The notes: generated from the letters alone by a model not told the origin. DNA of 64,000 bases from Selenomonadales bacterium (GCA_018335585.1 JAGXRZ010000053.1:25189-89188), one strand, 5' to 3'. Shown: positions 2,852-54,940, counted from the stretch's first letter. A program made the numbers and translations.

Positions 2852-3699
2852 GCTGGTCTCCTCCCATTCATTCCTGTCGCTCTAACTCCACGACAAACCG
2901 TACTCAGGTCCCCAGCGAATATGGCGTGTCATGATGCAGTCTGCCATGGGCAGGATCGCCATGACGCGAAGTGAATGTTGGGTTGCGCAGTCCTATTTGA
3001 ATTCTACATATGGTATATATTTCATCATTGATCATCAACATCCTGCTCAAAATCCTGCTCACTTTTGATAAAAGCAATGTCAACGTTGACATGAATGTTG
3101 GGGTTGCTGGCTGTGTTAATGGCGCTCTCTAGCTTTGGCCTGTCCAAAAACTAGTGCCGGACCCATTGACTGAACGTCGGCAAGTCAAAAATGAAAAGAA
3201 CTGCCGCCGCAGTCACCCTTAAGCTGTACTCTATGCTCCAGGAGGCGGTTGACCGTGAGTGATCGACTGCGAGAGCTATGCCGCCAAATGCGACTGGGGA
3301 ATCTGGCTATGCTTATTTAACCAAGTAGAGTATGCCGACAAAAAGCAGCACCTTACTGAGCTTCTGGAGATAGCTCACTAATGGCCGCTGACACTGCCCG
3401 TCCGCCCTTTGAAAAGCAAAATTGTTCATGCCGTCCTAGATCCACAAGGGCGGGAACAAGCAATTCCATTTGCATGCCTCGTTTTTTCTTCGCTCGCCGT
3501 TCATAGGCGGCCTGCTTCTCTCAACGCTCCTGTTCGTACTCTATCACTTCCCCAGTGATAGTAGATGCACTCAAAGAAATGACCTAGAGCAGCAGTTGAT
3601 CGCTACATCGTGGGTCGCTGCAGCGTGTTTCATAGACTAGCCACAAGTGGTAAACTACTATCAACAACCCCCTCCACCACATCCCAAAGGAGGCCCGAC

Positions 3700-3912
3700 A
3701 TGCTACCCCAAGCCAAATTAGATCGCCTTAACGCACAGGCGCAAAAGCAAAAGGAAGGCCAGCTCACCCCGGCGGAACAAAACGAGCAGAAGCTTTTACG
3801 CGCGGAGTATATACAGAGTTTTCGCAGCCGAGTCGCGGCCGACCTTGAGGCACAGGGCATGGAGCAGAAGCCTGCGCAGGGCTGTGCCTGCGGCTGCCGG
3901 CATAAGCACTGA
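3700..3912 (+). CDS. DUF896/UPF0291 (YnzC-like) small protein with a Cys-rich C-terminal tail
   Basis: SD AAAGGAGG 6 nt before ATG 3700. MLPQAKLDRLNAQAQKQKEGQLTPAEQNEQKLLRAEYIQSFRS matches the YnzC family pattern. The ORF-track entry 3610..3912 is an N-terminal over-extension. Confidence 0.55.
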   Translation: MLPQAKLDRLNAQAQKQKEGQLTPAEQNEQKLLRAEYIQSFRSRVAADLEAQGMEQKPAQGCACGCRHKH

Positions 3913-3992
3913 GCAAGCTGCGCTTTCGGCTGGCAATAAGCGTCTTTGCGGCAGGAGTGGCTGCTCTGCGCAAGCAGAGCGGCCTATTGATG

Positions 3993-4105
3993 TTTGTGGC
4001 TTGTGGCTTGTCGCTTGTCGCTTGTGGCTTGCGGCTTGCGGCTTGTCGCTCAAAGCTCACCGCTCACCGCTCACAGCTCCGTTCACACTCAGTTCACATT
4101 CACCT
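3993..4105. repeat. Composite heptanucleotide tandem-repeat array (locus A): (GGCTTGT)x7, (CGCTCAC)x3, GTTCACA units
   Basis: Direct reading: gtggcttgtggcttgtcgcttgtcgcttgtggcttgcggcttgcggcttgtcgct caaagctcaccgctcaccgctcacagctc cgttcacactcagttcacattcacc. Confidence 0.9.
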
Positions 4106-9378: not shown

Positions 9379-9518
9379 GGCTTTGAGCTTTGAGCTGTGA
9401 GCTGTGAGGGAAAAGGTGCAGTGTGTCTCTGTGTTCTCTGTGCCTCTGTGGTGAACAACTCCTCCCCGGTCGTCTCCACGCAGTGCTAAGTGCGAAGTGC
9501 TAAGTGCTAAGTGCTGTG
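9379..9518. repeat. Composite heptanucleotide tandem-repeat array (locus B): CTTTGAG/CTGTGAG, TCTCTGTG, (GTGCTAA)x5
   Basis: ctttgagctttgagctgtgagctgtgag...gtgtgtctctgtgttctctgtgcctctgtg...agtgctaagtgcgaagtgctaagtgctaagtgct. The CTTTGAG/CTGTGAG units are the reverse complement of the CTCAAAG/CTCACAG units at locus C. Confidence 0.9.
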
Positions 9519-13963: not shown

Positions 13964-15142
13964 ATGGCCATCAAAGTCTTTACCGTGTTTGGGGTACGGC
14001 CGGAGGCCGTGAAAATGGCCCCGGTCATTAGCGAGCTCGGGCGCTATCCTGAGTTTAGCGTTTCCGTGTGCGTCACCGGACAGCACCGCGCCATGCTAGA
14101 CCAGGTACTGCGCCTGTTTAGTATCGAGCCAAAATACGACCTAAACATTATGCGTGAGAGACAGACATTGCCCGAAACGTTTGCGCGGGCGCTTACCGGG
14201 CTTGACGAAATCTTTCGCGCCGACCGCCCGGACATTGTGCTAGTCCACGGCGATACGTCTACAACGCTCGCCGGCAGCCTGGCCGCTTTCTACAACCAAG
14301 TGCCGGTCGGGCACGTCGAAGCTGGGTTGCGTACGCACGAGAAGTACTTGCCTTTCCCCGAGGAAATAAACCGTAAGCTCACGGGCAGCCTAGCCGACCT
14401 GCACTTTGCTCCTACGCCGACGGCGAAGGGCAATCTGTTGCGCGAAGGCGTGCGAGAAGAGAGCATTTTCATTACCGGCAACACCGTCATCGACGCGCTA
14501 GCTACAACCGTGCGGCCGGATTACGAGTACCACGACGCCGCCTTGCGACAGGCGCTCGCCAAGACTACGGGACGATTGCTCTTAGTAGAAGTGCACCGGC
14601 GCGAGAACTGGGGCGAGCCGATGCAGGCCATGTGTTTGGCTTTGCTCGATGTGCTCGCGGCCTTCCCGGACTGCCGCATGATTTTTCCGGTTCACCTTAA
14701 CCCTGTGGTAAGGGAAGTGGTAATGCCTCATCTGGCGGGGCATCCGCAAATCACCCTGCTTGACCCGCTCGATACCGACGACTTCCACAACTTGATGGCG
14801 CGTTCTTACCTTATACTTACCGACTCAGGCGGACTGCAGGAAGAAGCCCCGGCGCTAGGCGTGCCGGTCTTGGTGATGCGCACCAGTACCGAGCGCCCCG
14901 AAGCCGTAGAGGCAGGCACCGTGCGCATCGTGGGGACGTCGCGCGCCGGGATTGTGGCGCATGCGAGCGAGTTGCTGGAAAGCAAAGCCGCCTACCAGTC
15001 CATGAGCACGGCGATTAACCCCTACGGCGACGGCCGCGCCGCAGGCCGCATTGCTCAAGCGTTGCTGCATTTCTTTGGCCGCACGCCGGAACGGCCAGCG
15101 GAGTGGAGAGGTGCCCAGTGCTCAGTGCCCAGTGCCCAGTAG
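13964..15142 (+). CDS. wecB: UDP-N-acetylglucosamine 2-epimerase (non-hydrolysing); the last ~10 codons come from the heptad repeat array
   Basis: MAIKVFTVFGVRPEAVKMAPVI at ATG 13964, in frame with ORF-track entry 13592..15142 (the upstream part of that entry overlaps the deaminase and is spurious). The C-terminus ...GAQCSVPSAQ* is encoded by the GTGCCCA repeats. Confidence 0.85.
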   Translation: MAIKVFTVFGVRPEAVKMAPVISELGRYPEFSVSVCVTGQHRAMLDQVLRLFSIEPKYDLNIMRERQTLPETFARALTGLDEIFRADRPDIVLVHGDTSTTLAGSLAAFYNQVPVGHVEAGLRTHEKYLPFPEEINRKLTGSLADLHFAPTPTAKGNLLREGVREESIFITGNTVIDALATTVRPDYEYHDAALRQALAKTTGRLLLVEVHRRENWGEPMQAMCLALLDVLAAFPDCRMIFPVHLNPVVREVVMPHLAGHPQITLLDPLDTDDFHNLMARSYLILTDSGGLQEEAPALGVPVLVMRTSTERPEAVEAGTVRIVGTSRAGIVAHASELLESKAAYQSMSTAINPYGDGRAAGRIAQALLHFFGRTPERPAEWRGAQCSVPSAQ

Positions 15143-15327
15143 TGGTAGCTGGCTCCTAGCTCCTGGCTCCTGGTAGAAAGACCCGCACTCCCCAGTTCAT
15201 GATTCACGATTCACGATTCATGATTTCTAACGCCTCAAGCCTAACGCCTCACCCTCTCAAAGCTCAAAGCTCAAAGCTCACAGCTCACAGCTCAAAGCTG
15301 GCGGCTGGCGCCTGGCGGCCGGCGGCC
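15111..15327. repeat. Composite heptanucleotide tandem-repeat array (locus C): (GTGCCCA)x4, (TGGCTCC)x3, (TTCAYGA)x4, (CTAACGCCTCA)x2, (CTCAAAG/CTCACAG)x6, (CTGGCGG)x4
   Basis: Direct reading of 15111-15327. Every block is built from 7-bp units. The module order is near-identical to locus E. Confidence 0.9.
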
Positions 15328-26324: not shown

Positions 26325-26966
26325 ATGATTCATAAGCACCGAGGGGATTTGGGCCAAGTGCCTCTTCTCTTAACGGCGTTTTCCATCATTATGGGCGCGA
26401 TTTATGGATTTAACGTCCCGCGTTTCGGAGATCCTATTTGGGCTACCGTGCCTTGGGGCATCGCTCTGGTGAGTCTGGGCATCATGGTTTTTGCGCTTAG
26501 AACGACTTCGCGTAACGCCTTAAGCCTCGGTCTCCAGTACGTAAGCTTAGGCCTGATAGCAGTGATGCTGATGCCTCCCATAGTGCGATGGTTTGACGGG
26601 CAAGGCTTAGGTGTGCAGGGAGCTACTCCTGTGGCCCATTGGGCGTGGGTAATTCCCCACCTAGTACTGGCACTGCCTTGGGGCATCGCTCTGGTGAGTC
26701 TGGGCGTCATGGTTTTGACGCTTAGAGTGACGTCGCGTAACGCCTTAAGTTTCGGTCTCCAGTACGTAAGCTTAGGTCTGATAGCAGTGATGCAGATCCC
26801 TCCCACAGTGCTATGGTTTGCGTTTGACGGGCAAGGCGTAGGGGAACACGGAGCTACTCCTGTGGGACATTGGGCGTGGGCAGTTCCCCACATAGTCCTA
26901 GCCCTACTAGCCCTGTATACGGGCTACCTCGTGCGCTCGAGGCCTAACGACATTCCGCGAGTCTAA
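26325..26966 (+). CDS. Hypothetical integral membrane protein made of two ~77-aa tandem repeats
   Basis: Repeat 1 and repeat 2 are ~85-90% identical (WGIALVSLG(I/V)MV...TSRNALS(L/F)GLQYVSLGLIAVM...GATPV(A/G)HWAW). The underlying DNA is a ~231-bp tandem duplication. Confidence 0.6.
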   Translation: MIHKHRGDLGQVPLLLTAFSIIMGAIYGFNVPRFGDPIWATVPWGIALVSLGIMVFALRTTSRNALSLGLQYVSLGLIAVMLMPPIVRWFDGQGLGVQGATPVAHWAWVIPHLVLALPWGIALVSLGVMVLTLRVTSRNALSFGLQYVSLGLIAVMQIPPTVLWFAFDGQGVGEHGATPVGHWAWAVPHIVLALLALYTGYLVRSRPNDIPRV

Positions 26967-34726: not shown

Positions 34727-35649
34727 ATGCCCCTCCCAAGTAACCTCTCCGTTTGTTCGACTAGAGACAACATCAGTTCTTGTGTCGAGAGAATGCTCTT
34801 AACCAGCCCTGCCGACTGCCCGGCCATTAACGAGCCCTTGTGGACGTCTCCCTGCTCGAATGCCAGTCGCAACCTGCCCGCGCCCAGCTTATGTAGCTCC
34901 TCTTCATCGGCGCCTTGGCGCTCTAGGACTGCGATTTCGCGCGTCAGTTGATTCTTTAGCGCGCGCACGGGGTGGCCAATTGAGGCACCGCAGATTATGG
35001 CATCGCGGTCGCCTGCCGCGACGATAGCCTCTTTGTAGTTCGCATGGGCTTCGCATTCGGTGGTGCAGATAAAGCGCGTGCCCAACTGCACGCCTTCTGC
35101 GCCTAGCATGAGCGCAGCGGCGATGCCGCGTCCGTCGGCGATGCCTCCGGCGGCGATTACTGGTACAGTTACAGCGTCGACTATCTGGGGGACCAAGGCC
35201 ATGGTAGAGATCTCGCCGATATGCCCCCCGGCCTCGTTGCCTTCGGCGACAATCGCGTCCGCCCCCATGCGCTCCAGCCGCCTAGCCAAGGCAACGGAGG
35301 CCACCACGGGAATAACCTTGCATTCCGCAGTCTTAAAAGCCTCCATGTAGGGACCTGGGCTTCCGGCACCGGTGGTAACTACAGGCACGCGCTCTTCGAC
35401 GACAACCTGTACTACGTCTTTGACCGCCGGCGACAACAACATTACGTTTACGCCGAAAGGCATGTCTGTTAGCCTACGAATTTTCCTGATTTCCTGCCGC
35501 ACCCATTCGCCCGGTGCGTGGCCGGCTCCCACAATGCCAAGGCCGCCCGCATCGGAGACGGCTGCGGCAAGAGCTGCTGTTGCCACCCACGCCATGCCGC
35601 CTTGCATAATCGGGTACTTAGTACCGAGCAGCGTTCTTACTCTGTCCAT
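34714..35649 (-). CDS. fabK: Enoyl-ACP reductase II (FMN-dependent, FabK)
   Basis: MDRVRTLLGTKYPIMQGGMAWVATAALAAAVSDAGGLGI is collinear with S. pneumoniae FabK. The ORF-track entry is extended at the N-terminus. Confidence 0.85.
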   Translation of the reverse strand: MDRVRTLLGTKYPIMQGGMAWVATAALAAAVSDAGGLGIVGAGHAPGEWVRQEIRKIRRLTDMPFGVNVMLLSPAVKDVVQVVVEERVPVVTTGAGSPGPYMEAFKTAECKVIPVVASVALARRLERMGADAIVAEGNEAGGHIGEISTMALVPQIVDAVTVPVIAAGGIADGRGIAAALMLGAEGVQLGTRFICTTECEAHANYKEAIVAAGDRDAIICGASIGHPVRALKNQLTREIAVLERQGADEEELHKLGAGRLRLAFEQGDVHKGSLMAGQSAGLVKSILSTQELMLSLVEQTERLLGRGIWKN

Positions 35650-35653
35650 ACCC

Positions 35654-36643
35654 TTAGCGCACCTGCCATTCCAATAAGCAGGAGCCCCACGTGAGCCCGC
35701 CGCCAAATCCCACCAGCATAACCTTGTCGCCCGTTCTAAGCCTCACTGCGCCAAACTCTTCGTGCAAAGCAACAGGAATCGACGCAGACGACATATTGCC
35801 ATATCTGTCAAGATTTACAGCGATTTTCTCCGGCGATAGCTTTAGTCGCTTAGCGAAGCCCTCGATAATGCGTAAATTCGCCTGATGAGGTATGTAGTAG
35901 TCGACCGCCTCAAAGCCGAGCCCCAGTTTGGCAAGCAGCTGTCCGCACGCCTCCTCTACTATCCGCACGGCGAACTTGTACACCTCTTGACCGTTCATGT
36001 GCACGTAGTGGCGGCGGCCGTTTACAGTCTCCAGCGAAGCAGGCAAGCGCGAACCCCCGGCGGGTAGTGTCAGCACATCGCCCGCCGTGCCATCAGCCCC
36101 GAGGTGTACCCCTAGTATGCGAGGCCCATTTCCATCCGCGCTTACGACGGCCGCACCCGCGCCGTCGCCAAACAAGACGCAGGTATTGCGGTCTTGCCAG
36201 TTTACAATGCGGGACAGCGTCTCCGCGCCAACTATTAAGACATGCCGCCAACTGCCAGACTCTATAGCCTGCTTGGCAAGCTGTAGCCCATACACAAATC
36301 CCGTACAAGCCGCGCCTAGGTCAAAAGCAATTGCGTTATGTGCACCTAACTGGCCCTGAATAATACACGCCGTAGAGGGGAACAACATATCTGGAGTGAC
36401 TGTGCAAACAATAATCGCGTCAAGGTCTGCGGGTTGTAGGCCTGCGGCTTCAATCGCTTGCTTGGCTGCCGGGTAAGACAAGTCCGAGGTAGCCTGCTCC
36501 GGCAGAGCGATGCGGCGCTCCCTGATGCCGGTCCTGCTCTCTATCCACTCTGCCGTGGTGTCTATGACACTTTCTAGCTCCTTGTTCGTCAAGACACGTG
36601 TCGGCACATACGCGCCGGTGCCTGAGATCACTGCTGTAGGCAC
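35654..36643 (-). CDS. fabH: 3-oxoacyl-ACP synthase III
   Basis: True start is GTG ~36643 (VPTAVISGTGAYVP) with SD GGGAGG. The ORF-track start at 36700 reads through the promoter and operator. Confidence 0.85.
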   Translation of the reverse strand: MPTAVISGTGAYVPTRVLTNKELESVIDTTAEWIESRTGIRERRIALPEQATSDLSYPAAKQAIEAAGLQPADLDAIIVCTVTPDMLFPSTACIIQGQLGAHNAIAFDLGAACTGFVYGLQLAKQAIESGSWRHVLIVGAETLSRIVNWQDRNTCVLFGDGAGAAVVSADGNGPRILGVHLGADGTAGDVLTLPAGGSRLPASLETVNGRRHYVHMNGQEVYKFAVRIVEEACGQLLAKLGLGFEAVDYYIPHQANLRIIEGFAKRLKLSPEKIAVNLDRYGNMSSASIPVALHEEFGAVRLRTGDKVMLVGFGGGLTWGSCLLEWQVR

Positions 36644-36674
36644 GATACACCTCCCATTTCGTTTCACATGTTGA

Positions 36675-36739
36675 AATATCCCTGTGCACACAATGTGCAC
36701 AGGGATATTATACTTACTCGGCGAGCGTTTGTCAACGAA
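36675..36739 (-). promoter_or_regulatory. fab operon consensus sigma-A promoter (TTGACA-17-TATAAT) overlapping a 16-3-16 perfect palindrome AATATCCCTGTGCACAcaaTGTGCACAGGGATATT
   Basis: Minus-strand reading: cgTTGACAaacgctcgccgagtaagTATAATatccctgtgcacattgtgtgcacagggatattt, then SD and fabH. The palindrome spans -10 and +1. Confidence 0.65.
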
Positions 36740-36766
36740 GCAAAAAGCTCCGTCCCTTTTGCTTCA
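36737..36766. repeat. 34-bp hairpin repeat copy 1 (AACGAAGCAAAAAGCTCCGTCCCTTTTGCTTCAC)
   Basis: 9-bp stem GAAGCAAAA/TTTTGCTTC with an 11-nt loop. It overlaps the stop codon of the Schlafen-like gene and abuts the fab -35 element. Confidence 0.85.
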
Positions 36767-38200
36767 CTTGGTGACAAAGCGCTGGTAACGGCTGCGAGGT
36801 CTTTCGGGCATCGTGAGGCGAATTTTCCCGGCATCAATTAGGGGCTGCACTAACTTGGACATCGTGTAGTATTGCGAGAATCCGGTAAAGCGGGTCAGCT
36901 CATCCCTCGACCTCGGAATGCTGCAAAACGTCAGTAACGCTGCCACCTGGTCGTGGCTTGCTTCTCTAATCGCCGCATGTAAGTTGTTTCTGAATGTGAC
37001 GACGAACTCACCCCTTTGGGCTGCAAAAAGCGGTGCAGGCAACTTGGCCTGATCACATTCTCTGCGGATTGTCGGGATGCCTGAATATCGATTCTCTGTA
37101 ACGGAAAGAAGTTCCAGTATGTTAGCAAGAGTCGGGTTGCGGGTGTCAGGACGCACCTTGCCAAGAGAATCGATGGAGATGTTCCCATATAGTCCGCCGC
37201 TGTTTGTCACCTCCATGCGGTCGCTATACATGACGATACGCACTGGGACAGATTCGGAGTGGATGCTGTAATCTCGATGCACGAGCGCGTTTAGGATGGC
37301 CTCGCGAACCGCCAAGGGAGGAAACTCTGGTCTGTCAACTCGCTTGCCGTCATCCCCAATGACGGTTGTTAGTCGTCCATTCCTTCGCACGAAGTCCACA
37401 GCAGCCTCTAACATGTCGGGTATAGGGCCCGTGATTCGCTGATTGGCTATGAAACGCTCGCCGGCAGTACCGGTATCCCCCATGCTCGTCCCGGGGACGA
37501 CGACTGCCGTGATGCACAGCTGCGGAAAGTTTGCCTGGGGATAGTGAGACAGCGCCATGAGGCCAGCTAGTGTAGGGGTTCCGTTCACCGTCACGCCCAT
37601 AAGCTCCAAAATGCCCTCATCAGATACGTTGTCGGCAATATTCCTTCGGTCGAGCTTAACTGCCCTTAAGTATCGCTCCACACGAGTGGGGTCAAAAAAT
37701 GACAGTCTTGCACTAACCACCGGCCGTAGGTCGTCACGGATACGTTTTCGAAAGGCGTCGAAGCTGTATATCTCATATTCACTCATCAGATCATTAGACT
37801 CCCCGACGCGAATGTACGATCCCTTGTTCCGGCCGACCCCTCTGTAATAGACTGGACGTTGGTCGGCGTCGACACTTGGTATTTCAGCCGCGACGACATG
37901 GTGCCCGTCTATCGTCGCAATGGTGAACAATGGGCGAACGATGGGCTCCATCTGTTTGCACTGCTCGGTAACCTTCCTCTGCAAGTCGTGCGGATCATAT
38001 ACGCCAACAGCACTAAAGCCCGCGCGCTCATCAAGACCAAACACAATCACCCCACCGTCATCTTGGTTAGAGAATGCGGACAATGTGCCGAACAGGCGAG
38101 TAGGGCAGCCATCACGGGCAGACTTCACCTCGATGCCCTGTGATTCGGTCTTCTGCGCTTGGATTTGATGCACCAAATCGACTAGCTCCTCAACCTGCAT
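36764..38200 (-). CDS. Schlafen/AlbA_2-domain ATPase with a C-terminal HATPase_c_4/wHTH region (the 'RecG-like putative transcriptional regulator' family)
   Basis: MQVEELVDLVHQIQAQKTESQGIEVKSA at ATG ~38200 with SD GGAGGTG; ~478 aa. The ORF-track entry extends to 38254. Confidence 0.6.
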   Translation of the reverse strand: MQVEELVDLVHQIQAQKTESQGIEVKSARDGCPTRLFGTLSAFSNQDDGGVIVFGLDERAGFSAVGVYDPHDLQRKVTEQCKQMEPIVRPLFTIATIDGHHVVAAEIPSVDADQRPVYYRGVGRNKGSYIRVGESNDLMSEYEIYSFDAFRKRIRDDLRPVVSARLSFFDPTRVERYLRAVKLDRRNIADNVSDEGILELMGVTVNGTPTLAGLMALSHYPQANFPQLCITAVVVPGTSMGDTGTAGERFIANQRITGPIPDMLEAAVDFVRRNGRLTTVIGDDGKRVDRPEFPPLAVREAILNALVHRDYSIHSESVPVRIVMYSDRMEVTNSGGLYGNISIDSLGKVRPDTRNPTLANILELLSVTENRYSGIPTIRRECDQAKLPAPLFAAQRGEFVVTFRNNLHAAIREASHDQVAALLTFCSIPRSRDELTRFTGFSQYYTMSKLVQPLIDAGKIRLTMPERPRSRYQRFVTK

Positions 38201-38219
38201 CTTCCCACCTCCTACCACT

Positions 38220-38346
38220 ATTATGACAACAATGCGGCAAAAATACAACAGCAAACGTTATTTTACGCAACAACAGTCCAAATTAACGCAACAACAGCGC
38301 GAAATAACGCAACAACAGGCCAACTTGAACCACATTGTTGCGTTAA
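38220..38346 (-). promoter_or_regulatory. Promoter (TTGTAT-17-CATAAT, TG-extended) preceded by three 21-bp-phased direct repeats TAACGCAACAACAG and one inverted copy
   Basis: -10 at 38220-25 and -35 at 38243-48 on the minus strand. Repeats at 38265-76, 38286-97 and 38307-18; inverted copy at 38333-46. Confidence 0.5.
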
Positions 38347-38360
38347 CTGAGTTTATCAAC

Positions 38361-38390
38361 GAAGCAAAAAGCTCCGTCCCTTTTGCTTCA
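38361..38390. repeat. 34-bp hairpin repeat copy 2
   Basis: aacgaagcaaaaagctccgtcccttttgcttcac, identical to copy 1. Confidence 0.85.
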
Positions 38391-38450
38391 CACCCATTTC
38401 CGAAAAAATGCTCAGTAGCCCTCCGGCGAGGAAACCAAACCAAAGTCCCT

Positions 38451-40235
38451 TCATGCGCACACCTCCGCCACATCACTTTGGCAGAGCACTTTTCCATGCT
38501 CAAATAGGCTGGCGTAATGTCCCTGTCGTGCCAAGAGCTCGGCGTGCGGCCCTGCCTCGACCACGCGCCCTCCATGTATAACGGCGATGCGATCCACGCG
38601 ACTTAAGAGATGCAGGCGATGCGTGACAATAATCTTGGTCGACGGAAGGCGCAATATGCAGTCTGTCACCAACCGCTCCGTTTTCATATCGAGCGCGGCC
38701 GTCGCTTCGTCTAAGAGCAAAACCGCGGCTCCGCGCAAAATGGCTCGCGCCAACGCTATCCGCTGTCGCTGCCCGCCCGATAGGGTACCCCCGCCCTCGC
38801 CTATAATCGTGTCGTAGCCCTGCGGCAGTGCCTTAATAAACTCGTCCGCTCCGGCCTGTGCGGCCGCCGCCCGAATATCTGTCTGCGTGGCGTCAAGATT
38901 GCCTAACCGGATGTTCTCTGCGATTGAGGTCGGCAAGAAGAAGTCATCCTGCGGGACATACGCCATATGCCGGCGCACGCAGGCGATTGACTCGGCGTCT
39001 AAGGCTTGACCGAAGCAAGAGACGACTCCGGCACTCGGTTGCCTAAAGCCAAGCAGGAGCTCCAGTAAGGTGCTTTTGCCCGCGCCGCTCGCCCCCACGA
39101 TGGCTAACGCCTCTCCGGTTCGCACCTTGAGGCTGAGCTCGCGCAACACGTCAGTCGCACCCGTAAACCCAAACGATACCCTATCGAATTCCACTGCGTA
39201 CTCCAGAGCGGCAGGCGGAGGCGGGCAGACCTTAGGCGGTAATGGCTCCACAGGCAGCTCCAGGACTTCCAGTACTCGTTCCGCCGCTTCACTGGCCGCT
39301 TTAATGTTTGCCAAGCTCTGCGCCACTCCCGAGAGCGGCCAGGTCAAGGCATTAAGCAGGTTTAGCAGTACAAAGAGCTGCCCTAAGCTCAGTCTGCCTG
39401 CGATAACGTCAAGCCCGCCTACGCCAAACAGCACGAGAAAAGGCACGACCGAGAACACTGTCATGGCTGCGTGCATCTGGCCCCGCAGCAAGGCGAGCTT
39501 AGCCGCATTGCCTACGGCGCTTTCCTGCAGGGCACTCATCCGTGCAACAAGGTAGTCGCGCATATTGTAGACCTTGGCAATGACTATTCCGGCCACCGTA
39601 TCTTGCGCGAGAACATTCACCTTAGCTATATCGCTTTGCCATAACTTGAGGACCGCACCCATGCGCCCGCCTAGCCAAGATGCGACAAACATCATGAGCG
39701 GCGCCATCGCCACCGTCAGCAATGTAACTTTCCATGACACGAGCAGCATTACCACCAGCGAGGCGACAAAGCCTAAGCTGCCTTGTGCGAGGTTTGGCAG
39801 GTGGCGCGCGAAGGCCGACCGCACGACTTGTGCGTCATTGCTAAGGCGAGAAACATACTCCCCGCTGTGCGTTTGTTCGAGCGCAGGGATGCGAGCCCGG
39901 CCAAGGTGCATGGCCACTTGCGCGCGCAGGCCGTGCATAACGCTCTCCGCGAGTTCTCCGGTAAGCAGTTGCCGCAGTAGCAAAGCAATGTCTCCGCCAA
40001 CCCAAACCAAAACTAACAGCAAAAACGTCTGCCCAAACGCCTCTCTGTCGGCAAGGATGCCTACATCAATAATTGCCCCAAGCTGCCGAGCTAAGAGCAC
40101 CCCCAGCGCCACTTGCAGAGCGATAACCAGCAACGCCCCAAGCGCTGTGATTCTATGCTGCCTGACGTACCCCCATAGTGCTTGCTGCCCTCGCCTTGGT
40201 TCCTTACTTGCTGCCGCCCGAGGTTTCCCCTGCAT
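38451..40235 (-). CDS. Fused TMD-NBD ABC exporter (MsbA/multidrug-type half transporter)
   Basis: Walker A GASGAGKST; signature LSGGQRQRIALARAI; Walker B LLLDEATAALD; six N-terminal TM helices. Confidence 0.85.
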   Translation of the reverse strand: MQGKPRAAASKEPRRGQQALWGYVRQHRITALGALLVIALQVALGVLLARQLGAIIDVGILADREAFGQTFLLLVLVWVGGDIALLLRQLLTGELAESVMHGLRAQVAMHLGRARIPALEQTHSGEYVSRLSNDAQVVRSAFARHLPNLAQGSLGFVASLVVMLLVSWKVTLLTVAMAPLMMFVASWLGGRMGAVLKLWQSDIAKVNVLAQDTVAGIVIAKVYNMRDYLVARMSALQESAVGNAAKLALLRGQMHAAMTVFSVVPFLVLFGVGGLDVIAGRLSLGQLFVLLNLLNALTWPLSGVAQSLANIKAASEAAERVLEVLELPVEPLPPKVCPPPPAALEYAVEFDRVSFGFTGATDVLRELSLKVRTGEALAIVGASGAGKSTLLELLLGFRQPSAGVVSCFGQALDAESIACVRRHMAYVPQDDFFLPTSIAENIRLGNLDATQTDIRAAAAQAGADEFIKALPQGYDTIIGEGGGTLSGGQRQRIALARAILRGAAVLLLDEATAALDMKTERLVTDCILRLPSTKIIVTHRLHLLSRVDRIAVIHGGRVVEAGPHAELLARQGHYASLFEHGKVLCQSDVAEVCA

Positions 40236-40341
40236 GTGCTACCCCCTTAATTTACAGACGTCTTCTGAGTGCGCGTCGTCATGCCCTCCAAAATATTCTA
40301 CATCTGACCCCCTCTACCTGCCGGCAAATGAAAAATTAAGC

Positions 40342-40371
40342 GAAGCAAAAAGCTCCGTCCCTTTTGCTTCA
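40342..40371. repeat. 34-bp hairpin repeat copy 3
   Basis: agcgaagcaaaaagctccgtcccttttgcttcac, located between the ABC gene and spoIIID. Confidence 0.85.
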
Positions 40372-40432
40372 CATATACCTGCTTCCAGCTCATATATGTT
40401 AAGTGAAGTAGTGAGCTACGGGGGGCGGGAGC

Positions 40433-40687
40433 GTGAATGACCACATCTACGAGCGGGTAGTGGAAATTGCACGGTACGTGGCAGCCACTAAGGCTACCGT
40501 GCGGGCTGCGGCCGACCATTTTGATGTTTCTAAGTCGACCGTACATAAGGACCTGACAGACAGGCTAAAAGCCATTAACACCGGCTTGTATGAAGAAGTG
40601 GCGGAAGTATTAAAGTTTAATAAGGCCACCCGGCATCTGCGCGGTGGCGACGCAACTCGCCGCAAATACGAGCGCGGCAACGCATAA
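40433..40687 (+). CDS. spoIIID: Stage III sporulation protein D (mother-cell DNA-binding regulator)
   Basis: MNDHIYERVVEIARYVAATKATVRAAADHFDVSKSTVHKDLTDRL...RHLRGGDATRRKYE is collinear with B. subtilis SpoIIID. Confidence 0.9.
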   Translation: MNDHIYERVVEIARYVAATKATVRAAADHFDVSKSTVHKDLTDRLKAINTGLYEEVAEVLKFNKATRHLRGGDATRRKYERGNA

Positions 40688-40753
40688 ACGCGCAGGAGAA
40701 TCCCCCTGCTTAGTAGAACTAACCCCTTTGACAGATGGCAAGGGGGTTTTCGT

Positions 40754-41782
40754 GTGTGGTTTAGGGGCAAAGACATCGGCATTGACCTAGGGACAGCAAC
40801 GGTACTGGTTTATGTGCGTGGGAAGGGCATAGTACTTAATGAGCCCGCTGTCGTCGCGATTGAGCGCACGACCAACAGAGTTTTGGCCATTGGCGAAGAA
40901 GCGCGCAAGATGATTGGGCGCACGCCTGGGCATATCACGGCGGTGCGGCCGCTGCGCGAAGGTGTGATTGCTGACTTTGACATCACAGAGAAAATGCTAA
41001 AACACTTTATCCTCAAGGTGTGCGGGGCGAACCCCCTGTTTAAGCCACGCGTAGTCGTGTGCGTTCCTTCCAGTATCACTAGCGTAGAAAAGAGGGCAGT
41101 CGAGGACGCGGCTACTAACGCCGGCGCTAAGGAGTGCTACTTAATCGAAGAGCCGGTGGCGGCAGCGCTAGGAGCCGGCATAGACATATGGAAGCCGCAC
41201 GGGAGCATGGTGCTAGATATCGGCGGCGGCACGACTGATGTGGCAGTTATGTCTCTAGGCGGCGTGGTCATCAGCGACTCCGTGCGCATAGGCGGCGATA
41301 AGTTCGACGAGGCCATGGTGCGCTATGTCAAGAAGCGCTACAACCTCTTAATTGGCGAGCGTACCGCCGAAGAGATTAAGATTAACGTCGGCACGGTCTT
41401 CCCTACGGGCCGCAACGCCAGCATGGAAGTGCGGGGGCGCGACCTTGTTTCGGGGCTACCTGCTTCTGTAACCCTGACTTCACTGGAGTGCTTAGAGGCC
41501 TTTGCCGAGCCTACCAACAACATTGTGGCCTTAGTGCGCACAGTGCTCGAGCGTTGCCCGCCTGAACTTGCCGCCGACATTGTGGACAAGGGGATTATTA
41601 TGACAGGTGGCGGCTCGCTCCTAGACGGCCTAGACAGACTTATCGCCGAAGTTACGCAGGTGCCCTGCAACGTCGCCGATGACCCGGTCTCTTGCGTAGC
41701 GCATGGCACAGGCAAAGCCTTAGAGAACCTCGATGTTCTGCGCGGTGCCGTCAGCGCTTCTCACCGCGACTTGCGGAGGTAA
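40754..41782 (+). CDS. mreB: Rod-shape-determining actin homologue MreB/Mbl
   Basis: [15 protein letters not shown] phosphate-1 motif; 342 aa; follows spoIIID as mbl does in Bacillus. Confidence 0.9.
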
Positions 41783-52401: not shown

Positions 52402-52412
52402 GAAGCAAAAGG

Positions 52413-52442
52413 GAAGCAAAAGGGACGGAGCTTTTTGCTTCA
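52413..52442. repeat. 34-bp hairpin repeat copy 4 (inverted orientation, preceded by a partial duplicate)
   Basis: agaagcaaaagggaagcaaaagggacggagctttttgcttcac. Confidence 0.85.
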
Positions 52443-52462
52443 CAACCGGCTCCCAGCTCGAG

Positions 52463-52496
52463 GCAGCAGGAAGCTATCCTGCTGCTTTCTGTTTTT
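52463..52496 (+). terminator. Rho-independent terminator after degV
   Basis: GCAGCAGGAagctaTCCTGCTGC followed by tttctgttttt. Confidence 0.7.
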
Positions 52497-52498
52497 GA

Positions 52499-52606
52499 AG
52501 TCGCTTACCGCTCACCGCTTACCGCTAACCGCCCACGGCCCCCCACAAGCGACAAGCGACCGGCGTCCTGCGACATCGCCTTGCACAAGCGACAAAAACG
52601 CCAAGC
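52499..52606. repeat. Composite heptanucleotide tandem-repeat array (locus D): (CGCTYAC)x5 and (ACAAGCG)n
   Basis: tcgcttaccgctcaccgcttaccgctaaccgcccac...cacaagcgacaagcgac...cacaagcgacaaaaacgcc. ACAAGCG is the reverse complement of the CGCTTGT unit at locus A. Confidence 0.85.
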
Positions 52607-53513: not shown

Positions 53514-54725
53514 ATGCGACACTTTTTTACCTCAGAGTCAGTGACAGAAGGGCACCCCGATAAAATCTGCGATCAAATTGCCGACGCCGTACTAGACGCC
53601 ATTCTCACGCAAGACAGCACCGCCCGCGTAGCGTGCGAAACGGCGGTCACTACCGGACTTGTCCTGGTCATGGGCGAGATATCCACTACCTGCTATGTGG
53701 ACATCCCGCGTATAGTGCGTGACACCGTGCGCGAAATCGGCTACACGCGGGCTAAGTATGGCTTTGACGCCGAGACGTGTGCAGTAATTACGTCCATCGA
53801 CGAGCAGTCGCCCGATATCGCCCAAGGCGTCAACCAGGCACTAGAGCAAAGGGAGGGTGGCGAGGCGCCCGACCAAGCCTCGAGCACCGGTGCCGGCGAC
53901 CAAGGCATGATGTTTGGCTATGCCTGTGCAGAGACGCCGGAATACATGCCTTTGCCCATTAGTCTGGCCCATAGCCTCGCACGCCGCCTGAGCGCCGTGC
54001 GCAAACAGCGCATTATCCCTTATCTCCGGCCCGATGGCAAAACTCAAGTCACCGTGGAATACGAGGGACATCGCCCCGTGCGGGTTGACACGGTTGTAGT
54101 CTCGGCGCAACACAAACCGGAGGTCACACTCCCGACCATTCGCGAGGACATCATTGCGCAGGTCGTGCGCCACTGCATCCCCGCGCACTTGCTCGACCAC
54201 AAGACAAAGTTCCTTATAAATCCAACGGGCCGATTTGTGGTGGGCGGGCCGCAGGGCGACAGCGGCCTCACCGGGCGCAAAATCATGGTCGACACTTACG
54301 GTGGTGCAGCACGCCACGGCGGCGGAGCGTTTTCCGGCAAAGACCCAACCAAAGTTGATCGCTCGGCGGCGTATGCGGCGCGCTATGTGACGAAAAACAT
54401 CGTAGCCGCAGGGTTAGCGGAGCGCTGTGAGTTGCAGGTCGCCTACGCCATTGGGGTGGCGAAGCCCGTCTCGATTATGGTCGATACCTTTGGCACGGGT
54501 GCAGTAAGCTCAGACAAGCTAGCCCAGATTGTAGGCCGCCATTTTGACTTACGTCCGGCAGCGATTATCGCGCACCTAGGCCTGAGGGCGCCAATCTATC
54601 GCCAAGTAGCGGCTTATGGCCACATGGGGCGCCCTGACCTTGACCTCCCCTGGGAGCGACTTGATAAGGTGGCGGAGTTAAGGCAGTATGTGGGTGCCCA
54701 GTGCCCAGTGCCCAGTGCTCAGTAG
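53514..54725 (+). CDS. metK: S-adenosylmethionine synthetase; the C-terminal 10 residues come from the heptad repeat array
   Basis: [10 protein letters not shown]; GAGDQG; [18 protein letters not shown]. The terminal ...[12 protein letters not shown] is encoded by the GTGCCCA repeats. Confidence 0.95.
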
Positions 54726-54900
54726 AACGGGGGACTCTTGGCTCCTGGCTCCTGGTAGAGGGAGTGCTTAGCGGTTAAAGCGTACGGCTTACAGCGTACA
54801 GCTTACAGCCATCAGCGGACAGCCACTCCGCAGTGGCAGTTCATGATTCACGATTCCTGATTCATGATTGCTCAATGCTCACCGCTCACCGCTCAAAGCT
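54694..54900. repeat. Composite heptanucleotide tandem-repeat array (locus E): (GTGCCCA)x4, (TGGCTCC)x2, (GCTTACA)x3, (TTCAYGA)x4, (CGCTCAC)x2
   Basis: Module order mirrors locus C. Confidence 0.9.
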
Positions 54901-54940
54901 AAAAAGGTGGAGAGGCCAAAGCCTTTCCACCTTTTCATTT
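54901..54940. terminator. Bidirectional terminator between metK and nhaC
   Basis: aaaaaGGTGGAGAGGCcaaaGCCTTTCCACCtttt. Confidence 0.65.

Follow-up and report, generated by a model that had tools for sequence, protein, structure and literature searches.

Repeat copies and gene content of the locus

The sequence analysed here, referred to as the window, is a 64,000-nucleotide stretch of a Selenomonadales bacterium (GCA_018335585.1, JAGXRZ010000053.1:25189-89188). It carries four copies of a short hairpin repeat, three of them clustered at the promoter of a fab operon and the fourth following degV. The repeat is very probably a repetitive extragenic palindrome (REP) of the kind associated with a REP-associated tyrosine transposase (RAYT). 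Gene assignments in the window are FabH, FabK-like, FabD and FabG, a Schlafen-like protein, a fused ABC exporter, SpoIIID, Mbl and DegV. An earlier note on this DNA had described the four copies and the order fab promoter, copy 1, Schlafen-like gene, copy 2, ABC exporter gene, copy 3, spoIIID; both descriptions hold, with coordinates that were off by at most 1-3 nt. The strand with the loop sequence GGGACGGAGCT is termed canonical here, which for copies 1-3 is the minus strand and for copy 4 the plus strand. The features are as follows.

36707..36735, minus strand: fab operon promoter, TTGACA-17-TATAAT, a 12/12 match to the sigma-A consensus; abuts copy 1 and is conserved in relatives
36727..36736, minus strand: 10-nt flank of copy 1, GTTGACAAAC on the canonical strand; holds the fab -35 TTGACA and matches the copy 2 flank at 9/10 positions
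36734..36767, minus strand: REP copy 1 (core 36737-36765), canonical strand GTGAAGCAAAAGGGACGGAGCTTTTTGCTTCGTT
36764..38206, minus strand: Schlafen/AlbA_2 and HATPase_c_4 gene, 480 aa, between copies 2 and 1, which are in direct orientation; its presence varies among close relatives
38351..38360, minus strand: 10-nt flank of copy 2, GTTGATAAAC, duplicated along with the REP
38358..38391, minus strand: REP copy 2 (core 38361-38389), separating the ABC exporter gene from the Schlafen-like gene
38451..40235, minus strand: ABC exporter gene (ABC-A), fused transmembrane and nucleotide-binding domains, 594 aa, between copies 3 and 2
40339..40372, minus strand: REP copy 3 (core 40342-40370), where spoIIID and the ABC exporter gene diverge
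52402..52443, plus strand: REP copy 4 (core 52413-52441), between the degV stop and a separate terminator hairpin at 52460-52495

A 34-mer is shared exactly by copies 1 and 2 (36734-36767 and 38358-38391) and, with one mismatch at its 5' end (AGC for AAC), by copy 3 (40339-40372), where shuffled sequence gives an expectation of 0 matches. All four copies share a 29-nt core, GAAGCAAAA-N11-TTTTGCTTC (36737-65, 38361-89, 40342-70 and 52413-41; again 0 expected), in which the loop of the copy at 52413-41 is reverse-complemented relative to the other three. No further degenerate copies were found in the 64-kb window at a tolerance of up to 7 substitutions. As had been proposed, each copy can form a 9-bp stem with an 11-nt loop; on the strand that reads GGGACGG, a G.T and a G-C pair extend the stem to 11 bp and leave a loop of 7 nt. 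Folded as single-stranded DNA, the hairpin has a dG of -7.7 kcal/mol (z = -3.0), and it is stable in both orientations.

The copies differ in their immediate surroundings. The TGA stop of the Schlafen-like gene (36764-36766) lies inside copy 1, an overlap that the earlier note had recognised, and the -35 box of the fab promoter abuts the same copy. Copies 1 and 2 share the 10-nt flank GTTGA[C/T]AAAC (canonical strand), with the TTGATA variant at copy 2 as previously described, so that REP plus flank forms a 41-nt direct repeat, 98% identical, around the Schlafen-like gene. The copy 2 flank is also present in three Logan contigs (L183-L185), which carry the Schlafen cassette. The partial duplication noted earlier at copy 4 is an 11-nt repeat of its own 5' arm, GAAGCAAAAGG, directly before the core at 52402-52412.

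A dispersed family of extragenic hairpins in related genomes

A genome-wide search for the repeat, which the earlier note had proposed, was run on related genomes and returned many extragenic copies of the hairpin. A stem-only scan with one genome per species yielded at least 120 stretches, and at least 92 copies with the loop GGGACGG[A/T][G/T]C[C/T] were found in the scanned loci, or 96 when the four of the window are included. Among the matches listed, these copies are spread over about eleven or more metagenome-assembled genomes (MAGs), in loci of 32-57% GC. The MAGs include candidate division NPL-UPA2 GPS119 (QLUB01), Firmicutes UBA994 (DBBC01), HKB212 (QLUS01), CAYGHR01, CAYSKJ01 and CAZHJK01. 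Minimum copy numbers are 27 for both QLUB01 and CAYSKJ01, 14 for DBBC01 and 11 for CAYGHR01. The copies are extragenic: with stop-to-stop open frames of at least 600 nt as the test, 1 of the 96 was buried 150 nt or more within such a frame, as against 58% of random positions in the same loci. REPs are recognised by a short imperfect palindrome with a stem-loop, a high dispersed copy number and an extragenic location, and all three were found here.

Individual genomes favour their own loop variant. Among the matches listed, AGCC accounts for 26/27 copies in QLUB01, TTCT for 20/27 in CAYSKJ01 and AGCT for 4/4 in the window. These differences hold even at orthologous sites, a pattern of concerted evolution. 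Many copies begin 0-30 nt past a co-oriented stop codon; in co-directional intergenic regions, 17 copies are co-oriented with their neighbours and 12 are anti-oriented, according to a crude gene call. No Rfam family was matched, either at permissive E-values on 36000-41000 or at gathering thresholds on the whole window. Likewise, neither a full-text literature search for the repeat sequence nor a BLAST search of the 41-mer against plasmid and phage collections gave a match.

A probable cognate transposase of the RAYT type

In QLUB01, the open reading frame (ORF) at 3004-3789 of locus L017 (identical to L129) encodes a Y1_Tnp protein (Pfam, E = 3e-12). Its top NCBIfam model is NF047646, REP-associated tyrosine transposase, whereas it scores 19 bits with the IS200 model, which has a cut-off of 55. 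RAYT-type motifs are present (HUH as NHVHLV, Q-x-R-Y/F and Y-I-x-N-N-P-V-K), and in an alignment with E. coli TnpA-REP (4ER8) the HUH, QxR(F/Y) and YIxxNPVK motifs line up. Some homologues already bear the name RayT in database sources. The gene is flanked by a canonical hairpin with a partial duplication upstream (2897-2939) and by an inverted hairpin downstream (3830-3882), and one RAYT copy was present in the QLUB01 loci scanned.

This association recurs. Orthologues lie beside the hairpin in DBBC01 (74% identity), JBMOKT01 and OW818645 (L011; 43% identity, 34% GC, same architecture), and a metagenome scan with the RAYT alignment returned 54 loci. Homologues down to about 40% identity, on contigs of 29-57% GC, have hairpins with the same loop motif, upstream on the plus strand and downstream on the minus strand. 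This arrangement occurs in at least 11 independent metagenome loci (the inverted flanks were seen in L017/L129, L130-L133, L011, L137-L142, L147 and L157). The claim that the repeat belongs to a REP-like dispersed family is therefore upheld by both its many extragenic copies and a cognate RAYT gene between inverted copies. On sequence grounds, repeat and transposase would together constitute a REP/RAYT system as defined by Nunvar (2010; PMC2817692).

The loop motif is tied to the hairpin architecture well beyond chance. In 1.28 Mb, 159 of 343 GGGACGG heptamers lie in an 11-nt loop with arms paired at 8/9 positions or more, as compared with 0-1 for each of five control heptamers, and 40 of the 159 have non-canonical stems. 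The stems covary: across 38 RAYT-flanking hairpins, a set that left out 13 copies with the heptamer in a different architecture, 6/9 stem pairs have changed on both sides, giving 40 compensatory cells relative to 11.4 +/- 3.4 in shuffles (0/500 reach 40) and 3-18 in slid controls. At L148 (metagenome contig FUWD013079314.1), the RAYT gene has a long perfect palindrome (TTAGGGACGGTTCCTCGCG/CGCGAGGAACCGTCCCTAA) on each side, with GGGACGGTTCC placed in its stem, a REPIN-like variant of the same motif.

Structural variation at the fab promoter

Loci of relatives were anchored by their FabH homologues. In all five (L081, L121, L122, L123 and L125), a REP lies directly upstream of the fab -35 box, and the content beyond it varies as follows.

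L125 (FabH 98%): mbl-spoIIID, copy 3 with flanks identical to those in the window, a 76-codon fusion ORF and one REP
L121 (FabH 90%): mbl, followed directly by one REP; without spoIIID, the ABC gene and the Schlafen-like gene
QLTZ / QLUB01 (L122 / L081; FabH 86%): REP, orf87-MNT-HepT, REP; the two REPs are inverted
DBBC01 (L123; FabH 83%): a spoIIID remnant and one REP

The comparison with L125 is the closest. Window positions 36771-40071 are missing there. The earlier note had proposed checking whether relatives lack the repeat-bracketed genes; L125 does lack the Schlafen-like gene, and it has a single REP in place of copies 1 and 2. Identity between the two is 97.8% on the fab side (35339-36770) and 90.4% on the spoIIID/mbl side (40072-41421), and this drop across the REP cluster suggests a recombination break point there. 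In the L125 fusion ORF, the 5' approximately 55 codons of ABC-A run into the 3' end of a paralogue, a second ABC gene absent from the window. The ABC gene of the window is what is left of an older ABC locus with two genes and does not form a discrete cassette. A 34-codon ORF that overlaps the ABC stop and reads on into copy 2 is a candidate for the beginning of the lost second gene. Two deletion end points, one for the second ABC gene lost from the window and one for the spoIIID-ABC deletion in L121, fall at the 5' edge of a REP, which is the same side as the partial arm duplications described below. The REP site is constant, its content varies and the break points lie at REP edges; the locus is therefore a REP-associated hot spot of structural variation. 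Additionally, spoIIID is absent in L121 (1805-1905), 5'-truncated in L123 (2860-2930) and intact in the window and L125, so the lineage is in the process of losing this gene.

The Schlafen cassette with both REPs also occurs in other samples, in one case as a version with 89% protein identity (L186). Homologues of the Schlafen-like gene in unrelated genomes (L187, L189 and L190) are without REPs and are followed by an AEP-TOTE gene. AlbA_2/HATPase_c_4 and AEP-TOTE form a two-gene pair resembling a conflict system, and the window lacks its AEP-TOTE member. A truncated AEP-TOTE gene in L190 is directly followed by a RAYT homologue with a GGGACAC-loop hairpin. Upstream of the Schlafen-like gene in the window (38255-38350), three direct 21-bp repeats with the core T[A/T]ACGCAACAACAG and one inverted copy look like iterons or operators; they are kept in the L186 version.

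The idea that the repeat family carries promoter elements in its flanks was upheld in part. The -35 TTGACA of the fab promoter does sit in the flank of copy 1, but the host promoter sequence is kept in the five relatives and lies outside the repeat. Across the family, TTGAC[AT] stands directly beside REPs in 10 flanks where 1.2 are expected; because merging orthologues leaves about 5 independent sites, this enrichment is graded as suggestive only. Separately, a perfect 33-bp palindrome, ATATCCCTGTGCACA-CAA-TGTGCACAGGGATAT, covers -10/+1 of the fab promoter (36676-36708). It is kept in L081, L121, L122, L123 and L125 and is probably the operator of a fab repressor.

Arm duplications, loop inversions and direct pairs

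Partial copies of the 5' arm, truncated at their 3' end, precede 39/89 REPs (one or more each), and only 2/89 have such fragments on the 3' side. They take the forms GAAGCAAAA, ...AAGG, ...GGGAC and ...GGGACGGT (loci L001-L120 and window 52402-52412). Beside copies downstream of RAYT genes, the duplicated arm matches the local arm sequence (L138, L147 and L162). Nested insertion was considered as the origin of these fragments and rejected, because the 3' remainder of a split copy is never found downstream. The variable truncation points, together with the lack of a 3' remainder, instead mark them as 'restart' duplications.

The loop can also be inverted in place. Between window 36737-36765 and L081 6497-6525, the stem occupies the same position while the 11-nt loop is reverse-complemented, and a second such flip separates L030 3634 from L080 5411 (DBBC01 versus QLUB01). 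Such flips would fit either recombination or a switch of template between the arms of the palindrome.

One genome has a distinctive arrangement of its own. In CAYSKJ01 (L042, L046, L066, L078 and L099), direct REP doublets with a conserved 37-bp spacer (ACAGCCGG...AATGCGCATTTTCC) make up composite elements of about 95 bp, which are confined to this genome (44% GC).

Interpretation and alternative explanations

Overall, the repeat is interpreted as the REP of a REP/RAYT system found in uncultured Bacillota, a clade mostly associated with serpentinite or anaerobes and related to NPL-UPA2, UBA994 and Dethiobacter-like MAGs, with a rearrangement hot spot at the fab promoter; a probability of about 0.85 is assigned to this reading. 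Under the proposed mechanism, a unit of 29-33 nt would fold as single-stranded DNA into a 9-11-bp stem with the loop motif GGGACGG[A/T][G/T]C[C/T]. A single-copy, domesticated Y1/HUH transposase, itself flanked by two inverted copies, would most likely recognise hairpin and loop and would thereby spread, homogenise and maintain copies in intergenic DNA. The three clustered copies occupy an old REP site just upstream of the fab promoter that has turned into a hot spot, where gains and losses of the Schlafen-like gene, ABC exporter genes, a HepT/MNT pair and spoIIID stop at REP edges. Dispersal, extragenic placement, the link to RAYT genes, covariation of the hairpins and REP-bounded structural variation are all directly observed. 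We infer that the RAYT acts on these hairpins, that the genome of the window encodes one and that the local rearrangements result from REP-associated breakage or recombination and not from coincidence.

Several observations weigh against this interpretation. The score of the L017 protein with the RAYT model, 66 bits, is below the cut-off of 80, and its sole PDB sequence match, to 4ER8, is weak (E = 0.25). No RAYT gene was found by tblastn in the 64-kb window, so the cognate enzyme is deduced from relatives at approximately 76-78% nucleotide identity, and for the genome of the window the count is only 4 copies in 64 kb. The GTAG / CGTC terminal tag is absent from the repeat, and close pairs (gap of 150 nt or less) are direct in 10/11 cases and inverted in 1/11. 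Neither a transposition event nor a target-site signature nor a clean empty/filled pair for a single REP was found among the loci compared; the QLUB site after degV, for instance, is a decayed remnant and not an empty site. The last point also bears on the suggested likeness to a miniature inverted-repeat transposable element (MITE), which is defined by terminal inverted repeats and a target-site duplication: the element here is one palindrome by itself, and no clean empty/filled pair accompanies it.

The earlier note had also proposed that the repeats mediate cassette insertion. On one such reading, direct REP pairs would act as the end hairpins of IS200/IS605 insertion sequences, with the RAYT moving the enclosed gene in trans, or a circle with one REP would integrate by REP x REP recombination, and such units would pile up at the fab site. 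Copies 1-3 are indeed all direct. Copies 1 and 2 form a direct repeat of REP plus exactly 10 nt of 3' flank, and in IS608 right-end cleavage occurs 10 nt 3' of the hairpin. The interval between spoIIID and fabH varies among relatives and breaks at REP edges. The Schlafen cassette with both its REPs exists in the diverged L186 version and is absent in the relative with 98% FabH identity; this site is occupied in QLTZ/QLUB by a different cassette, HepT/MNT, with a REP on either side, and in DBBC by a single REP without any cassette; and the CAYSKJ01 doublets resemble miniature two-ended elements. However, REPs bracket, one by one and equally, housekeeping genes that are syntenic between QLUB and DBBC (MurJ, a CtpB-like S41 peptidase, the oligopeptidase F PepF, RmuC and a nitroreductase). 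The REPs around the QLTZ toxin-antitoxin cassette are inverted, and no cassette was met with in a second genomic context, the Logan contigs stopping inside REPs. The arrangements of the window and L125 are not interconvertible by a single REP x REP event, and the ABC gene reads as a remnant of a two-gene locus. For these reasons cassette movement is regarded as a minority possibility, and the local 'island' is a hot spot of rearrangement marked by REPs, not an array of the integron type. A bolder proposal goes further still and is somewhat less likely. The repeats would constitute a distinct class of Bacillota REPs whose RAYT reads the loop in place of a stem-foot tag and whose direct copies let the RAYT, or REP x REP recombination, carry whole genes (Schlafen-like, HepT/MNT and ABC, for example) into and out of hot spots such as the fab promoter, an HUH-transposase counterpart of integron shuffling, the 5' arm fragments being scars of abortive templated re-synthesis at a cleaved hairpin.

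It is unlikely that the hairpin is conserved mainly as RNA, that is, as a 3' stabiliser or terminator of the upstream gene, a role that had also been suggested. E. coli REPs stabilise upstream mRNA (reviewed in PMC3733652), the many copies that start 0-30 nt after a co-oriented stop would suit such a role, and G.U pairs lengthen the stem on the GGGACGG strand only; a secondary mRNA-stabilising effect is possible. As a primary role it is not upheld: the stem lacks a U-tract, copy 4 is followed by its own canonical terminator, and copy 3, the only copy flagged as a terminator, owes this to a fortuitous T-rich flank in a divergent promoter region with no co-oriented upstream gene. The 17 to 12 orientation bias is weak, the element flips in situ at orthologous sites, and the absence of an Rfam match also speaks against an RNA element; moreover, stabilisation of RNA would leave the conserved loop sequence and the RAYT association unexplained. 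Far less likely is that the repeat serves as an operator for a transcription factor of fab and neighbouring genes. It is palindromic, and in five genomes it directly precedes the fab -35 box, but the majority of copies follow the 3' ends of genes or separate convergent ones, the loop is both asymmetric and conserved and its orientation flips, and the fab promoter has its own separate conserved palindrome. Least likely of all is an integron-like or Xer/dif-like site (an analogue of attC or pdif) at which a tyrosine recombinase would insert cassettes site-specifically. The 11-7-11 layout GAAGCAAAAGG-GACGGAG-CCTTTTGCTTC recalls a tyrosine-recombinase core site, and genes are bracketed individually. 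By inspection, however, the R''/R' core motifs (RYYYAAC / GTTRRRY) are absent at the repeat ends, the repeat is 29-34 bp long as against 57-141 bp for attC, and tens of copies per genome stand beside housekeeping genes without uniform orientation. No integrase or Xer gene was seen beside the repeat, the window as a whole not having been searched for intI. The recurrent neighbour gene is a Y1/HUH transposase and not an integrase, and together with the repeat ends this led to rejection of the attC or dif reading.

Other repeats in the window

Two further kinds of repeat are present in the window. A unit of approximately 230 bp occurs as two tandem copies at 26449-26905 (147-nt and 84-nt segments, 85-91% identical). 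Intergenic arrays of heptamer blocks lie at 3987-4102, 9380-9515, 15110-15326, 52502-52575 and 54693-54904. They consist of successive short blocks with 3.6-8 copies each of different heptamers, among them TTGTGGC, GCTCACA, AGTGCTA, GTGCCCA, CTGGCTC, TTCAYGA and CTCAAAG. The arrays at 15110-15326 and 54693-54904 have the same block order and thus represent a second dispersed repeat of approximately 220 bp. In related MAGs (L019, L022, L034, L080, L083, L103 and L130), arrays of this type flank numerous REPs and, in one case, a RAYT gene; the arrays recall the short tandemly repeated repetitive (STRR) heptamer sequences of cyanobacteria.

Comparison with known systems

The closest known counterparts are the proteobacterial REP/RAYT 'REPtrons', namely the E. 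coli REPs and bacterial interspersed mosaic elements (BIMEs) with TnpA-REP and the Pseudomonas REPIN/RAYT systems (PMC2817692, PMC3116915, PMC5581495). Shared with these are extragenic palindromes of about 30 nt in tens of copies or more, a Y1/HUH gene between two inverted copies, RAYT-type motifs, a genome-specific repeat variant and long vertical persistence at orthologous sites. In contrast to the REPtrons, the host here belongs to the Bacillota, a stem-foot GTAG is lacking and the invariant motif is in the loop. The Bacillota RAYT has a C-terminal extension of approximately 140 aa, arm duplications on the 5' side are frequent (39/89), and the loop inverts in situ between orthologous sites. 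Unlike REPINs and BIMEs, inverted doublets are not the main unit; singlets predominate and close pairs are direct. The GTAG/CGTC superfamilies of tagged REPs, in a survey that does not mention Firmicutes (Di Nocera et al. 2013, PMC3733652), resemble the present family in having an 8-13-bp stem and an extragenic location mostly downstream of genes. Here, however, CGTC occurs inside the loop only, on the complementary strand, there is no unpaired terminal tag, and the ends GT...AC extend the stem. Furthermore, CGTC families have a 4-5-nt loop and no dedicated transposase, whereas the present repeat has a sequence-conserved loop of 7-11 nt and a transposase of its own.

IS200/IS605 elements and their non-autonomous derivatives (palindrome-associated transposable elements, PATEs, or hairpin MITEs) are similar in that a Y1 HUH transposase acts on single-stranded hairpins, and the direct doublets and direct REPs around a gene mimic the left- and right-end hairpins of one strand. 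They differ in that the transposase gene is here between inverted and not direct hairpins, which is not the organisation of an IS200/IS605 insertion sequence. In addition, the protein scores 19 bits with the IS200 model as against 66 with the RAYT model, there is no tnpB, and the repeat far outnumbers the gene. Integron attC sites and Acinetobacter pdif modules are alike in that a short imperfect palindrome brackets genes one at a time in a variable locus, some of these genes being of toxin-antitoxin or defence-like type; here, in contrast, core-site motifs are lacking, the repeat occurs genome-wide beside housekeeping genes and the enzyme is an HUH transposase.

As the REP family of a Bacillota RAYT clade, the repeat is therefore part of a known kind of system and not a new kind of genetic element, and its recognition architecture and arrangement are unlike the proteobacterial paradigms. 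Knowledge of REP/RAYT systems rests almost wholly on Gammaproteobacteria. This family, with a RAYT clade covering genomes of 29-57% GC, is a second and well-separated test case, and the invariant loop with covarying stems points to a different mode of recognition. For the annotation of serpentinite-associated uncultured Bacillota, REPs explain recurrent contig breaks, and REP sites mark the places where accessory and defence-like genes come and go.

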